Shown: positions 11,000 through 61,753 of the stretch, in pieces | How the letters are laid out: every line of letters starts with the position of its first letter | Position numbering within the stretch: the stretch's first letter is position 1 | Source of the DNA: a virus | Lineage: Duplodnaviria; Caudoviricetes | IMG/VR virus record: IMGVR_UViG_3300003320_000367 | Span: 4,819-68,818 of that record | Strand: one strand, 5' to 3' | Length of the DNA: 64,000 bases | Program-made: the position numbers and the translations under genes | Notes under the pieces: generated by a model | What the model was told of the DNA's origin: nothing | The model's input: only the letters and a program-made list of their open reading frames with translations | Databases searched by the model: none

Positions 11000-11284
11000 C
11001 GGAGCACCTCGGGATGACGGTGGCCGATCTGGACCATCGCCTGAGCTCCACAGAGCTGACCGAGTGGATCGCGTTCGAGAAGATCACGGGTCCACTCGGT
11101 CGGCGTCGGTCGGATATCCAGGCGGCCACCATAGCGGCCACTGTAGCGAACGCGAATCGCGGCAAGGGCGGCAGGAAGTTCAAGATGTCGGACTTCCTGA
11201 TTCCATACGGAGAACAGCGCAAGACTCCCGAGCAGATGCTCGAGACGATCAAGAGCCTTAACCGGTCGATGGGAGGTGAAGAGC

Positions 11285-12874
11285 ATGGCTGATGTGACGA
11301 TCGATATCGATGCGAATATGGGTAACACATCCGCAACGATCAACGACGCATCCAACAGCCTTGACGATCTCGGCGACGCCGCCAACTCAGCGGGTGGCGA
11401 CCTCGACCAGGCTGGCAACTCGGCACAGGACGCCGGTGGCCGACTCGGAGCGGTCGGAGCCGGAGCCATCGGCGCGAGCGCTGCGTTCGCCAACATGAAC
11501 GACATCGTTGGTCAGGCTGTCGACCTGTGGCACCAGGGCGACCAGCGAGCCGACGATCTGGCGCGTGCACAGAACGACGTGGCGCAGGCAGCGCTCGACG
11601 TCAAGCAGGCCAACCAGGACATGCGCCAGTCTCAGATCGACGCGAACCAGGCTCAGGCCGACGGTGCTCAGGCTGGCATCGACCTGGAGCAGGCTCTGCT
11701 TGACCAGAAGAAGGCCCAGCAGGACTACAACGACGCCGTCAAGAAGTACGGAGCCGACTCGCTGGAGGCCCAGCAGGCCGCCATCGACCTGAAGCAGGCA
11801 GATCAGGACGCCAAGCAGGCCAAGATCGACGGCAAGCAGGCGACCGAGGACTACAGCCAGGCACAGCTCGACGGCAAGCAGGCTGCGATCGATGCCAAGG
11901 GTGCACAGCTCGACCTCAACGAGGCGCAGCGGAACGTCACGAGCGCGTCTGTGATGGACGGATGGTTCGGCGTCATCTCGCAGGTCGGCACCGCGCTGTT
12001 TGGCCTCATAGGCACGTTCGCTCTGTTCGGCACGGAGACTGTGGCCACAGCTGCTACCGCTGTTGGCTCGGCCATCGCCACGGCTGCTGCATGGGTCGGT
12101 TCCTGGATCTTGATGGCTGCCAGCGCGCTTGCGAGCGCGGCCTCGATGGCTGCTGCATGGCTCCTGTCCATCTGGCCGATCGCGCTTATCATCGCGGCCG
12201 TCGCCGGTCTCGTCGCCCTGATCATCATTTACTGGGACGACATCAAGGAATGGACCATCAAGATCTTCACCGCCGTCTGGAACTGGCTCAAGGGCCTGTG
12301 GGACGACATTGTTGATATCTTCTGGTGGGCCGTTGGAATGGCCAAGTCCATCTTCCTGAACTTCACCCCGCTCGGAATCATCATCAAGAACTGGGGCGCC
12401 ATATCCGGCTGGATCTACAACCAGTGGAAGGGGATCTCGTCCACTGTCGGCGGATGGGTGAAGCACATCAAGGGCTTCTTCAGCGGAATGTGGGATGGTG
12501 TCGTTTCCGGCCTGAAGTGGGCTCTGAACGGAATCATCGGCCTGCTGAACGACGGCATCTACGGTGTGAACGTCCTGATCTCCGGTGCCAACCGAATCCC
12601 CGGAGTCAACATCGGATTCATCCCATACATTCCGTACCTGGCAGAGGGTGGCGTCACGACCGGGCCGACAATGGCCATGATCGGTGAAGGTCGCGAGCAG
12701 GAAGCCGTGCTCCCGCTTAGCAAGCTTCAGGGTATGCTGAACATGGCTGGCAGCGGCGGCGGACAGGTCGTCGTGTTCGAGCTTCGCGGCGGAAGCCGTG
12801 CGTTCAGGGAGTTCTTCCAGGAGTCTGTTCGTACGACATCTGGTAAGAGCGTGATCAAGTTTGCGGAGGGATAA
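11285..12874 (+). CDS. tape measure protein (short, about 529 aa)
   Basis: Q/A/D coiled coil then amphipathic W/I/A repeats; C-terminal IPYLAEGGV and EAVLPL; follows the chaperone. Confidence 0.88.
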   Translation: MADVTIDIDANMGNTSATINDASNSLDDLGDAANSAGGDLDQAGNSAQDAGGRLGAVGAGAIGASAAFANMNDIVGQAVDLWHQGDQRADDLARAQNDVAQAALDVKQANQDMRQSQIDANQAQADGAQAGIDLEQALLDQKKAQQDYNDAVKKYGADSLEAQQAAIDLKQADQDAKQAKIDGKQATEDYSQAQLDGKQAAIDAKGAQLDLNEAQRNVTSASVMDGWFGVISQVGTALFGLIGTFALFGTETVATAATAVGSAIATAAAWVGSWILMAASALASAASMAAAWLLSIWPIALIIAAVAGLVALIIIYWDDIKEWTIKIFTAVWNWLKGLWDDIVDIFWWAVGMAKSIFLNFTPLGIIIKNWGAISGWIYNQWKGISSTVGGWVKHIKGFFSGMWDGVVSGLKWALNGIIGLLNDGIYGVNVLISGANRIPGVNIGFIPYIPYLAEGGVTTGPTMAMIGEGREQEAVLPLSKLQGMLNMAGSGGGQVVVFELRGGSRAFREFFQESVRTTSGKSVIKFAEG

Positions 12875-52045: not shown

Positions 52046-52058
52046 GCATCCTCCTCGG

Positions 52059-52120
52059 GGACTCCTCAGCAGCGCCATCCAGCGCCGGACCATCGGGGCC
52101 GGAGCCCCTAGGTTTCGTCC
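52059..52120 (-). ncRNA. type II hammerhead ribozyme HH-F
   Basis: GGAC GAAA CC..GGGGC uccg GCCCC..GG UC| CGGCGC uggaug GCGCUG CUGAGGA GUCC; predicted cut after 52088. Confidence 0.87.
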
Positions 52121-52180: not shown

Positions 52181-52645
52181 TTACTTCTTGGTGGCCGCCG
52201 TCCGCCGGGTGCGCCGGGCGGTGGTCGCCTTCTTGGGCTCAGGAGCGGCCTCCGTGGCCGCCTCCGCGCCGTTCTCGCCGTCGCCCTCAGCGGTGGGCTC
52301 GGCGTCCGCCTTCGGGGCCTCAGCGGGCTCCTCGGGCTTCGCCTCGTCCTTCTGCTCGCCGCCCTTGAGCTTGGCGAGCTCCGCCTCCAGCTTGGCCAGC
52401 TTCCGAGCCTTGGCCTCCTCCGCCTTCTTGGCGGCCTCAGCCTTGCGCTCGGCGAGAGCCTTCTGGTTCTCCTCGCTGGACTGGAAGTCCATCCGCATGG
52501 TGACGGCGAGCTGGACCGTCTTCAGGTCCGGGGTGTAGCCCGTCTTCTCCTCGATCCACTTGGCGAACGCCTTGTGGAGCTCGGTGGGCTCAGCGGCCGC
52601 ACGCTCAGCGAAGGTCTTCTTGCTGGGGGTGGTGTTCTCGGCCAT
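52181..52645 (-). CDS. hypothetical protein, paralogue 2 of a 3-member family
   Basis: PTELHKAFAKWIEEKTGY...KTVQLAVTMRMDFQSSEENQ plus K/A/E tail. Confidence 0.8.
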   Translation of the reverse strand: MAENTTPSKKTFAERAAAEPTELHKAFAKWIEEKTGYTPDLKTVQLAVTMRMDFQSSEENQKALAERKAEAAKKAEEAKARKLAKLEAELAKLKGGEQKDEAKPEEPAEAPKADAEPTAEGDGENGAEAATEAAPEPKKATTARRTRRTAATKK

Positions 52646-52661
52646 GGTGTTTCCTCCTTGG

Positions 52662-52725
52662 GGACTCATCGGCACCGGCATCCACCGGCGGACGAGCAGC
52701 GCTTCCCAGCGGGCTCGTTTCGTCC
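52662..52725 (-). ncRNA. type II hammerhead ribozyme HH-E (variant core CCGAUGA)
   Basis: GGAC GAAA CGAGC...GCUCG UC| CGCCGG uggaug CCGGUG CCGAUGA GUCC; predicted cut after 52691. Confidence 0.78.
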
Positions 52726-53148
52726 TTGTTGTTGATGAGTGCCGGCATCTCCTCAGCTTGTTGAGGGTTGCGGTTGCCGGCATACCGTCCACCTTTCGAC
52801 TTCCTGGCCAGAGGTGCCCCGAGCGGGGTGTCTCACTTGACCCAGGCTTGAAGAGGTGGAGTTCGTCGCTCGCTAGCAGCTTTCAGTACCGCCCGGATGT
52901 GTGCGCTTCCTCCACCCGCAGTGGGTGGCGGCTGCCCGTCCTCGGGAAGTCCAGTCGCTTCGCTCGCAACTACCGGTTTTGGGGAGTCCGGTTCCTGTCT
53001 AGAGTCAGCGGCCAGGACCAGGGTCCTGTGCGCGATCTCAGCCGTCTCTCTTGGCTGTCCTGCTCGGGTTCGCGGTCTTCGGGCGGAACCTCGACCCTCG
53101 GCCAGACCGGCCATCCGGGGAGTTCGTTCCTTGCCCTCGTCGCTTCCT
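52692..53148 (-). ncRNA. candidate structured non-coding RNA B (promoter to HH-E cut)
   Basis: No SD-led ORF; 5' part homologous to 57582-57675. Confidence 0.55.
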
Positions 53149-53155
53149 GAGTAGA

Positions 53156-53185
53156 ACTATGCGCCATATCCGGGTCCGAGGCAAC
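53156..53185 (-). promoter_or_regulatory. putative early promoter GTTGCC-N18-CATAGT
   Basis: Matches the repeated right-arm promoter family. Confidence 0.65.
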
Positions 53186-53352
53186 TCAGCCCCTACCTGG
53201 TCATTCACCGTGTTTGACCAGGTAGGAGCATGTGCAAACTTCGTGGAACTTTTTTCGACTTTTTCTATTTCCGCAGGCCGGCATGAGTGCGACGCGTCAT
53301 GGGGTGAATCGGGCGAACCATATCGTCAACGGCGATTCACCCGGCCTCCGGC

Positions 53353-56220: not shown

Positions 56221-56234
56221 GTGGTCCTCCTCGG

Positions 56235-56306
56235 GGACTCGTCAGTACGGCGATCAGCCGCAGACGGCCCGCCCTCCCCTGGCTGGGGAGTCGGGCCGTT
56301 TCGTCC
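56235..56306 (-). ncRNA. type II hammerhead ribozyme HH-B
   Basis: GGAC GAAA CGGCCCG...CGGGCCG UC| UGCGGC ugauc GCCGUA CUGACGA GUCC; predicted cut after 56263. Confidence 0.9.
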
Positions 56307-56317
56307 TTCGAGGTTGC

Positions 56318-56920
56318 TTAGTCGTCCAGCGCGGGGCAGCAGGGCTTGGCGTTGTAGGCCATGTAGTTGTCCTTCAGGCTGCTCTCGCCCGAGTCGATCA
56401 TGTCCGAGTAGATCAGGTGGGTCAGCTCGGTGTGGCTGCTGACCTGCGCGGTCTCCTTGGAGAAGCCCTTGGCCTTGGTCATCTTCTTCAGGTCGGCGCA
56501 GCCGAACTTGTGCACCTCGGGCTCGCCGTTGCCGTAGACCACGGTCAGCTTCTGGACCGGACCCGGCTCCTCGGTCTTGGCCTCCTCGGCGACCGGCTCG
56601 ACCTCCTTGGGCTCCTCGACCGCCTCGGCCTGCTCGCCACGGAGCTTCGCCAGCTCGGCCTCCAGCTTGGCCTTCTTGCGCTCGGCCGAAGCCTTCTTGC
56701 GGGCCGCAGCCGCCGCCTTGCGCTCAGCCAGCGCCTTCTGGTTCTCGGGGGAGGCCTGGAAGTCCATCCGGAGGACGGTCACCAGCTGGACCGTCTTCAG
56801 GTCGACCCGGACGCCGGTCTGAACGAACAGCCACTCAGCGAAGTCCTCGTGCAGCTGGGTCGGAGCCTTGGCCGCGATGGCCTCGTAGTTCTTCGGGGTC
56901 TTGTTGGTGTTGGCAGCCAT
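56318..56920 (-). CDS. hypothetical protein, paralogue 3 of a 3-member family (extra C-terminal Cys/His domain)
   Basis: PTQLHEDFAEWLFVQTG...KTVQLVTVLRMDFQASPENQ; VHKFGCAD...PCC. Confidence 0.8.
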   Translation of the reverse strand: MAANTNKTPKNYEAIAAKAPTQLHEDFAEWLFVQTGVRVDLKTVQLVTVLRMDFQASPENQKALAERKAAAAARKKASAERKKAKLEAELAKLRGEQAEAVEEPKEVEPVAEEAKTEEPGPVQKLTVVYGNGEPEVHKFGCADLKKMTKAKGFSKETAQVSSHTELTHLIYSDMIDSGESSLKDNYMAYNAKPCCPALDD

Positions 56921-56993: not shown

Positions 56994-57064
56994 TCTGGAG
57001 TGGAACTTTCTTGCCGGCACAGCCGGGGAGCTGGGGGCTCCCCGGCTGGCCGTCGCGCCTTGCC

Positions 57065-57282: not shown

Positions 57283-57346
57283 AGACTCCTCAGGACCGCC
57301 GTTCAGCGGCCGACAGCCAGCGTCTCCCGACGGGGCTGTTTCGTCT
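57283..57346 (-). ncRNA. type II hammerhead ribozyme HH-A
   Basis: AGAC GAAA CAGCC...GGCUG UC| GGCCGC ugaacg GCGGUC CUGAGGA GUCU; predicted cut after 57312. Confidence 0.9.
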
Positions 57347-57678
57347 TGTGTGTTGCGAGGGCGTCGGTGGGACCTACCATCCGCTCCGCCCTCTCGCCAG
57401 GCCCTTGCGCCTTGCCAACCTCTCGGATGTTCTCTCGTGGGGTGGCTGGTTCCGTGTCTCCCTAGCCAGTCCCGCGTCCGTCCCCGAGGAGTTGCGCGCT
57501 ACTACCCTGTCTACCAGTTTTCTTGTGGTGGGTTGGTGCCCAGTCTCCGAGATTGCATTTCCTGCTTCCGACCCCTCGCACGGCCGCCTTGCTCGGTGTT
57601 CGCGTTCTTCGGGTGGAGCCTCGACCGTCGGCTGGAGTCGCCGTCCCGGGAGCTTCGCTCGCCGCCCTCTCGCTTACA
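57313..57678 (-). ncRNA. candidate structured non-coding RNA A (promoter to HH-A cut)
   Basis: No SD-led ORF; homologous to 53053-53146. Confidence 0.55.
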
Positions 57679-57684
57679 GGAACT

Positions 57685-57714: not shown

Positions 57715-58000
57715 ACGGCGTCTACCTGGTCAAACATGATGAATGCCCTGGTAGGAGGCTTGCCGGCATTTCGAAAGTTTTTTGAAGAATCTTCGTTTGA
57801 CCAGGTAGACCTGAGGATGGGCTGGGCGCGGCCCTACGTGGCCCGTAGGCGGCTCCGCGCGGGCTCTCGGGCCCAACGGGGCTCGGGCCGGTCCTACGGC
57901 CGTTACGCGGCCACGTAACGGGCATGCCGGCATGCGAGCGCCCGAACGCGAGAGAGCCCCGCTCCCTGAGTGGGAACGGGGCTCGGGCCGGTTGGCCGGA

Positions 58001-58829: not shown

Positions 58830-59186
58830 TCAGCCCTCCAGGGGCAGCGCGGGCGGAACGTACCCGGTCCGCTCGATCGCCACGATCAGCATCGCCCGCA
58901 GCGCGGGGACGTCGGGCGAGTCCGAGTTGACCACGTCGTCGTACAGCTCACGCGCGGTCGCCTCCAGGTCGGTCACCAGCTCCATGTTGTCGGGCGTCAT
59001 CGCGTCGTACATCGCGCAGCTGCAGTAGCTGTGCGACCCGCACCCGCAGCCCGTCGCCTTCAGCGAGAACAGCTCGCCGGTCTCGTCCTTGATCACCAGC
59101 ATCGCGACACCCGCCAGGTCGTACCGCTCCTGCGTGATGTCGACGTCGCCGAGGACCGTGTAGCCGGGGATCGTGTAGTCGCTCAT
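58830..59186 (-). CDS. hypothetical protein (GCGCGSHSYCSC motif)
   Basis: CCCCAAGGAGG SD; own promoter. Confidence 0.75.
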   Translation of the reverse strand: MSDYTIPGYTVLGDVDITQERYDLAGVAMLVIKDETGELFSLKATGCGCGSHSYCSCAMYDAMTPDNMELVTDLEATARELYDDVVNSDSPDVPALRAMLIVAIERTGYVPPALPLEG

Positions 59187-59228
59187 GATGGCCTCCTTGG
59201 GGCTCTTGCTCTCTCGCTTACAGGAACT

Positions 59229-59488: not shown

Positions 59489-59520
59489 TGCGTCCTCCTC
59501 GGGGACTTGCTGTTGATAGA

Positions 59521-61714: not shown

Positions 61715-61753
61715 CTGGTGCCTCCTTGGGGCGTTCTCTCGCTTACAGTAAGA

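Follow-up and report, generated by a model that had tools for sequence, protein, structure and literature searches.

A protein-free leader region of a Streptomyces phage group appears to be conserved as a folded RNA that ends at a type II hammerhead motif

Hammerhead ribozymes in phage operons are usually read as mRNA cutters, and the locus described here raises the question of what is cut off when such a motif closes a long stretch that contains no gene. The locus lies in a 64,000-nucleotide stretch of DNA (the window), which makes up most of a 68.8-kb virus record. The closest relatives were the Streptomyces phages Lizz, PHTowN, ShakeNBake, Dryad, Gibson, Rooney, Wentworth, and phiRKBJ001, with 86 to 90% identity over 2 kb, and Yara was a remoter relative than these eight GenBank phages. 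In the annotation of Lizz, the virion arm runs rightward and a long leftward arm carries the replication genes, and neither an integrase nor a repressor is annotated; the phages form a small group and are lytic-looking. All of the genes surrounding the locus were on the minus strand, and the locus stood at the head of a run of about 45 same-strand genes that included the replication genes. Read along the minus strand, the region consisted of an A-rich tract, an inverted repeat, -35 and -10 elements, a stretch of about 430 nt that held no credible gene, a C/A-rich linker, a hammerhead-like motif, AAGGAGG, and the ATG at 52645 (Table 1). A first-pass annotation had proposed a promoter, a long ORF-free region, and a hammerhead in this order, and we found -35 and -10 elements at the place where it had put the promoter and a type II hammerhead-like motif at 52725-52662. 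Together with the comparative results described below, this confirmed, at the level of sequence, a protein-free stretch of about 460 bases, here called RNA B, that appears to be conserved as a folded RNA, with its own promoter at the start and a hammerhead at the end, just before the next gene.

Table 1. Positions of the features of the RNA B locus and of its paralogue in the window
Feature	Position	Strand	Description
Operator-like inverted repeat CTACCTGGTCA...TGACCAGGTAG	53193..53225	.	Just upstream of the -35 element; arms conserved in relatives
Promoter (predicted)	53156..53184	-	-35 TTGCCT (53184-53179), 17-nt spacer, -10 CATAGT (53161-53156); conserved in B copies
RNA B	52691..53148	-	About 458 nt, predicted start to predicted hammerhead cut; no coding signal, conservation step, covariation in 15 distinct copies
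5' domain P1, long irregular hairpin (predicted)	53060..53148	-	Nearly invariant among B copies; common to RNA A
P2 hairpin CAGCC-AAGAGAGAC-GGCUG	53039..53057	-	Invariant; helix 7
Pseudoknot module AGACAGG-AACCGGAC-UCC-CCAAAA-CCGGUAG	52970..53000	-	Common to B, A, the minimal RNA, and type C
Variable stem with constant loop ACUGC	52903..52935	-	Strongest covariation; helix 17, 6/12 pairs changed on both sides
P6 domain, closing stem CUCCACC...GGUGGAC	52787..52861	-	Helix 18; two pairs changed on both sides (UA to GC, AU to GC)
P7, palindromic UGCCGGCA stem and inner hairpin CCUCA/UGAGG	52740..52782	-	Helices 22-23; inner hairpin covaries (AUCC/GGAU, CUCC/GGAG)
C/A-rich unstructured linker	52726..52739	-	Length variable; duplicated in L020
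Hammerhead HH-E, type II (putative)	52662..52725	-	Stem II GGAC/GUCC, GAAA, stem III hairpin, GUC, 6-bp stem I hairpin, CCGAUGA
Downstream gene with Shine-Dalgarno sequence	52181..52659	-	Shine-Dalgarno AAGGAGG 52659-52653, ATG 52645; 154 aa; phrog_20596
Paralogue RNA A	57313..57681	-	About 369 nt; behind it lie the rest of hammerhead HH-A (57312-57283) and a 67-aa ORF

The RNA B region is non-coding. Between about 53340 and 52650, GC3 periodicity was absent, with a between-frame spread of 0.03 to 0.30 compared with 0.4 to 0.7 in the flanking genes, and the corresponding gap was empty in nine annotated GenBank relatives (514 to 712 bp), as was the gap holding the paralogous RNA A (563 to 856 bp). 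Among 18 copies, gap runs of 1, 2, 4, and 5 nt occurred in the RNA B region, whereas the next gene had gap runs of only 3, 6, 9, and 12 nt, and no third-position excess of variable sites was found in any one frame of the region. The lost periodicity, the empty gaps, and the indels that do not come in threes bear out the earlier description of the region as ORF free. A missed small protein gene, for instance the 93-codon ATG ORF at 53114-52833, is scarcely credible: ORFs of 65 to 93 codons are present on the same strand, but such ORFs arise by chance in high-GC DNA, no Shine-Dalgarno sequence or GC3 signal accompanied them, the indels that interrupt the region separate close relatives, and the ATG is missing from RNA A. 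The region was nonetheless more conserved than the neighboring gene, with 27% variable columns versus 38% in the latter.

Conservation started at the predicted transcription start. In 17 aligned copies, from phages and contigs whose flanks differ by 10 to 15%, the fraction of invariant columns was 0.42 to 0.68 in the 200 nt upstream and 0.92 to 0.96 over the first 100 nt (53148-53049), with a step from 0.58 to 0.92-0.96 exactly at 53148. Additionally, RNA A was found in some contigs and relatives behind a different type of promoter (GTAGCG...TAAAGT), with the conserved sequence still starting at the same CUGUAAGCGA. The step and the shared start behind differing promoters fit a transcript that begins at 53150-53147. 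The B promoter itself matched the consensus weakly (8/12), a promoter scan of the window did not list either the A or the B promoter, and a terminator scan of the window gave nothing above shuffled sequences. The motif CTACC(T/A)GG(T/G)CA had five exact copies in the 64 kb, as an inverted pair at the B promoter and as three copies at the A promoter (57722-57808), and was absent from the other early promoters. On the basis of this shared motif, the A and B promoters form a class of their own, probably under the control of one DNA-binding protein. Farther upstream, a 10-bp inverted repeat, GGGTGAATCG...CGATTCACCC (53293-53341, minus strand), follows the stop of the upstream gene and precedes the A-rich tract of the B promoter. 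The related motifs GTGAATCGCCGT and CGATTC occur upstream of RNA A in relatives and are deleted in this phage, and GTGAATCGCCGT had no repeat within the window.

Covariation was tested on 15 distinct B copies with the hammerhead left out, using the RNAalifold structure plus one pseudoknot stem. The common fold contained 126 pairs, and 96.7% of the cells were paired, compared with 29 to 42% when the partners were slid. Eleven pairs had changed on both sides, versus 5.3 +/- 1.1 in shuffled alignments (none of 500 reached 11) and 0 to 4 in the slid controls. The supporting changes fell in five helices, namely, the ACUGC-loop stem, which gave the best support, the P6 closing stem, the P7 inner hairpin, and helices 9 and 14. 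The pseudoknot module followed the pattern AGAC(A/U)GG-loop-CC-(A-rich)-AAAAC-GG(U/C)AG in all of the RNA types and showed covariation in both stems (A-U to U-A in stem 1 and G-C to A-U in stem 2). The 5' domain did not vary within the B copies, and the A and B types differed there by two compensatory pairs alone; with almost no covariation to draw on, the fold of this domain is mostly a prediction. G-U pairs were present in some copies at 15 of the 126 pairs and in all copies at four, so the fold exists only on the minus-strand transcript.

Two hairpins had been named in the first-pass annotation. For the hairpin described as compensatory between A and B, the U-G versus C-G difference is a change on one side only, but true flips (C-G to G-C and A-U to G-C) adjoin it. 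The hairpin AGUUGC...GCGACU was recovered in the single-sequence fold, whereas the alignment fold paired GUUGC with a distal GCGAC instead, and as far as these folding models go, both the local and the distal pairings are possible. A longer rearrangement was considered and rejected as a conserved switch: in the full-length RNAalifold fold, a 21-bp pairing linked the pseudoknot module to the hammerhead, and this pairing showed no change on both sides, was broken in one relative (L010), and had no counterpart in RNA A.

The covariation bears on two readings in which the RNA itself would have no function. According to the first, the region is a passive spacer or a decaying duplicate, a functionless long leader that the ribozyme removes. 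The folding energy is in keeping with it, as there was no thermodynamic signal relative to shuffled sequences (z = -0.10 sense and +0.23 antisense), but a decaying leader is hard to reconcile with a region more conserved than the neighboring gene and nearly invariant over its 5' 100 nt, with the covariation, and with the retention of both copies in the eight closest of the nine GenBank relatives and in long contigs spanning both places; we consider this reading improbable. The second takes the locus to be an element acting as DNA, either a transcription-activated replication origin or a set of protein-binding sites. A highly conserved gene-free block that lies next to an A-rich tract and inverted repeats and is present in two copies per genome would suit such an element. 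The compensatory changes and the alternation of G-U with Watson-Crick pairs fit a folded single strand of one polarity instead, conservation starts at the transcription start rather than at the repeats, and the 2',3'-cyclic phosphate end that the ribozyme would make is chemically unable to prime DNA synthesis. We therefore regard an element of this kind as very improbable. The best reading is that RNA B is a member of an undescribed family of modular, structured non-coding RNAs. With Rfam 15 covariance models, no family reached its gathering score anywhere in the window, nothing was found within the RNA B body (52726-53148) up to an E value of 10, and a full-text literature search returned no paper describing the RNA B family.

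A hammerhead motif lies directly 3' of the non-coding region. The only Rfam matches up to the same E value were sub-threshold hammerhead matches, with five Hammerhead_II (RF02276) matches on the minus strand between 50.5 and 57.3 kb; of these, HH-E, at the end of RNA B, scored 23.9 bits (E = 0.55) and HH-A, at the end of RNA A, 22.6 bits, both below the gathering score of 37, so that HH-E was about 13 bits short of the Rfam threshold. In the cmscan alignment HH-E had the type II architecture, with three stems round the core, of which stem II was open and stems I and III ended in loops, and stem III occurred among the relatives in four compensatory versions (GAGC/GCUC, GACC/GGUC, GGUC/GGCC, and AACC/GGUU). 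The reference core is CUGANGA; HH-E has GAAA and GUC, its core, CCGAUGA, carries a U4C change that was present in 11 of the first 13 distinct B copies, and four relatives (L010, L011, L015, and Yara) had the canonical core CUGAGGA. In a viroid, a U4C core is reported to be weak in vitro but active enough in vivo (PMC3088659). Judging by the motif and by the covariation of stem III, we infer that HH-E cuts after GUC, between 52691 and 52690. A separate type II hammerhead that did pass the threshold (39.3 versus 37 bits) was seen in a remoter phage contig, L039:12410-12473, where it lies behind the first gene after another RNA type (type C, described below).

The retention of a slow-looking U4C core in most B copies may also be read as a sign of regulation, in which RNA B would be a cis-acting leader that responds to temperature, a protein, or a ligand by controlling cleavage of the hammerhead or the access of ribosomes to the gene behind it. 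The c-di-GMP-II riboswitch that sits beside a group I ribozyme provides a precedent for an aptamer next to a ribozyme, and the 21-bp alternative pairing, which joins the pseudoknot module to stem I and the core of the hammerhead, would be a candidate gate. That pairing, however, did not stand up as a conserved feature, the relative that breaks it has a differing hammerhead, and the distance from the conserved core of the RNA to the hammerhead ranged from about 60 nt in the minimal RNA type to about 250 nt in B, with a variable, unstructured linker. Additionally, the genes behind A and B are unrelated, and Rfam gave no match to a riboswitch family. A sensing leader is thus quite unlikely in our assessment. 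As for the linker, one metagenomic copy (L020:4000-4066) had a tandem duplication of CACACAAGCAACACACAAGCAACACACAAGG that lengthens it before the hammerhead, which fits an unstructured spacer of free length.

Judged by its sequence, RNA A is a true paralogue of RNA B. The first-pass annotation had stated that the same layout recurs 4.5 kb away with a homologous 5' part, and both points were borne out. A 27-nt core pattern taken from the 5' domain occurred exactly twice in the window (0 expected) and twice in the whole phage record, positions 7-99 of B aligned in blastn with positions 7-100 of A (93 nt at 78% identity, E = 2e-15), and the two hammerheads aligned at 73% (E = 4e-6). The middle parts of A and B gave no BLAST alignment, yet they had in common the pseudoknot module and an internal-loop helix with GGACGG on one side and ACAUCC on the other. 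The likeness is thus not confined to a promoter-proximal DNA element: the homology covers the first 95 nt or so of the transcript and reappears in the pseudoknot, the internal-loop module, and the hammerhead. The sequence homology, the common structural modules, the covariation, and the recurrence in relatives all support the earlier view of a duplicated and diverged cassette of non-coding RNA and ribozyme.

The 27-nt core was present in each of the nine GenBank relatives and in seven IMG/VR stretches, and metagenomes from soil or rhizosphere added a further 15 stretches. The eight closest GenBank phages carried both A and B, as did the long contigs that span both places and most of the longer metagenomic contigs, and Yara carried one A-type copy and one RNA of type C. 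In Yara the A-type RNA precedes a homologue of the gene behind B, so the type of RNA and the downstream gene are not tied to each other. A scan of 185,579 bacterial and archaeal genomes for the core returned one B copy on a 1.5-kb contig and two matches in Nocardioides. We discarded the Nocardioides matches as chance matches inside coding DNA, and the B copy, on a contig binned with an Acidobacteriota MAG, is probably phage carry-over.

Several variants mixed the parts of A and B. In a natural hybrid (L026:1229-1428), the lower 5' stem was of the B type and the apex and body were of the A type. A minimal form of about 190 nt (L029:7131-7348 and L037 around 11270-11790) combined an A-type apex with the B-type P2 and pseudoknot module, and in both contigs two hammerheads lay behind it, with a 43-codon ORF between them. 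These mixed forms suggest, by their sequence, that the A and B paralogues have recombined in nature. Type C, a third type, is a long gene-free leader found in Yara at the A position (L006:2676-3361) and in two unrelated contigs (L039:11560-12200 and L040:7790-8430). It had only the pseudoknot module in common with RNA B, lacked the 5' domain pattern, and had no hammerhead directly behind it. A hairpin of type C also covaried, with the versions CCGAGGG-UCCAACC-CCCUCGG and CCGGGGG-UCCAAUC-CCCCCGG.

The other early promoters of the window (e.g., at 59185-59225 and 61715-61750, minus strand) are followed by short leaders of the form CUGUAAGCGAGAG-(7-9 nt)-CCCCAAGGAGG-(5-6 nt)-AUG. RNA A starts with the same CUGUAAGCGAGAG and RNA B with AGGAAGCGACGAG, and after the predicted cut the A and B mRNAs would each keep a 5' hairpin followed by ...GAGUCCCCAAGGAGG..AUG. 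With the same start and end as the short leaders, the RNA and its ribozyme look like a self-removing insert, that is, a cassette set into a standard short leader.

The gene that follows RNA B has a paralogue behind the first promoter after the RNA A unit (56318-56920, minus strand); both were assigned to phrog_20596, and Pfam and PHROGs searches with eight neighboring proteins assigned no function. In Lizz and Rooney, the annotation places two helix-turn-helix proteins between A and B. The RNA A unit contained, before the next promoter, the RNA, the 67-aa ORF, and a strong hairpin alone. This hairpin, a 12-bp GC stem (CAGCCGGGGAGC-loop-GCUCCCCGGCUG, 57025-57062, minus strand), has no U tract and is kept in relatives with changes in the loop; it is probably a terminator. 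Because the unit is so short, RNA A itself is likely to be its main product. A possible antisense action of RNA A was examined and dropped: nt 191-202 (57480-57491), CUCCUCGGGGAC, are the exact complement of GUCCCCGAGGAG, which comprises the hammerhead tail and the Shine-Dalgarno sequence, at three gene starts (52051-52062, 56227-56238, and 59495-59506). The match was not conserved and was at about the chance level, and an anti-Shine-Dalgarno role is not supported, since in relatives the segment changes together with its partner inside the RNA. No antisense target was found for RNA B.

A weak hint of transcription came from RNA libraries. Words of RNA B occurred in six RNA-labeled runs from four studies, all of them metatranscriptome runs available as assembled contigs, in which depth and uncovered parts are not interpretable and DNA carry-over is possible. 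One soil run had a 188-nt contig (52958-53145) that showed 3 mismatches and had no loose end, and a second contig of that run ended at 57680, in RNA A. A root run, X4, left no part of the region uncovered and had contigs that crossed the promoter and the cut site, and runs X17, X18, and X19 had short contigs inside B.

The observations can be arranged as a pathway in four steps. Transcription would begin near 53148 at a promoter whose flanking operator-like repeats are found at the A and B promoters alone, and the first 430 nt or so would fold into the 5' hairpin domain, a small hairpin, the H-type pseudoknot, and three further hairpin domains; the start and the multi-domain fold are both supported by the sequence and by its comparison among relatives. 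The type II hammerhead would then cut after the GUC at 52691. This would free an RNA whose 5' end is tucked into P1 and whose 3' end carries a 2',3'-cyclic phosphate behind the terminal stem III hairpin, and the mRNA left behind would begin with a 5'-OH and a 5' hairpin, followed by the standard short leader (..CCCCAAGGAGG..AUG). In the last step, the released RNA would be the product, accumulating and acting in trans on a host or phage factor; a sponge, a decoy, or a scaffold, as suggested in the first-pass annotation, would be candidate roles. Our preferred reading, that RNA B is a stable trans-acting RNA released from the mRNA by the ribozyme, is one that we hold with about even confidence.

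The closest working analogue of RNA B is the Pleft leader RNA of the cluster A mycobacteriophages L5, D29, and StarStuff, a stable RNA of about 500 nt that is the most abundant transcript, is toxic to the host, and has a 3' end formed by an unexplained mechanism (Dedrick et al. 2017, PMC5712189). Like the Pleft RNA, RNA B fills a gap of about 500 nt that holds no gene and separates the first gene from an operator-controlled early actinophage promoter (the operator being a candidate in our case). In contrast to RNA B, the Pleft RNA has no ribozyme, is a single copy at the genome end, and belongs to temperate phages. No homology between them was found by blastn (word size 11) against 50,697 phage records that included L5-type phages; only the group of Lizz, Gibson, Wentworth, Dryad, and Yara was matched. 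GOLLD and ROOL are large, multi-domain, phage-borne non-coding RNAs that were recognized by covariation. A and B differ from these in their smaller size, their position in a 5' leader, and the hammerhead that bounds them, and neither family was matched up to an E value of 10.

The main rival to the trans-acting RNA is a put-like processive antiterminator. Its 5' domain would fold on emerging from RNA polymerase, bind the elongation complex, and allow read-through of pauses and terminators in the leftward operons, and the hammerhead would just free the mRNA. In phage HK022, the paralogous putL and putR RNAs lie behind the two early promoters PL and PR and act without a tether to the nascent transcript (Hwang et al. 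2022, PMC9378689). The paralogous, structured A and B RNAs are likewise placed directly downstream of two co-regulated early promoters; because put needs no tether, cleavage would not abolish an action of this kind. RNA B also heads the 45-gene run with replication genes, and the 5'-proximal domain is the most conserved part of RNA B. However, put RNAs are about 70 nt long and consist of two stems, compared with 370 to 460 nt, many modules, and a ribozyme end in A and B, so that several further conserved modules would be unexplained by this role. Furthermore, the RNA A unit stops after the 67-aa ORF at the strong hairpin and is followed by a fresh promoter, and there was no match to put by sequence or by Rfam family. 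Overall, we judge the antiterminator to be unlikely. The same holds, a little more firmly, for its fuller version, in which A and B would be protein-independent modifiers of RNA polymerase with antitermination or antipausing activity, detached by the hammerhead so that the RNA rides on the polymerase and the mRNA is free for translation. If true, the put-like reading would provide the first put-type mechanism outside the lambdoid coliphages and the first that is coupled to a ribozyme.

The stable trans-acting RNA that we prefer would give the hammerhead a different part to play. According to Perreault et al. (2011, PMC3088659), type II hammerheads occur commonly in bacteria and phages, and in the haloviruses HF1 and HF2 an HHphage variant lies 13 nt upstream of the first early ORF, where a mapped 5' end matches the cut. 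The 3' boundary of RNA B is a motif of the same class (RF02276), apart from the C at position 4 and the score below the Rfam threshold. Whereas the known examples are described as cutting mRNAs between or before genes, the upstream product here would be a conserved, structured RNA of about 430 nt. If the piece cut off is indeed a conserved multi-domain RNA, natural type II hammerheads would gain a concrete role, the maturation of a non-coding RNA from a 5' leader with restoration of a short mRNA leader. Among actinophage leader RNAs, this may also offer an answer for the abundant Pleft RNA, whose 3' end is unexplained. The RNA family described here is small, modular, and easily altered, as seen in types A, B, and C, the 190-nt minimal form, and the natural hybrids, and the hosts are genetically tractable Streptomyces strains, which makes its function directly testable.
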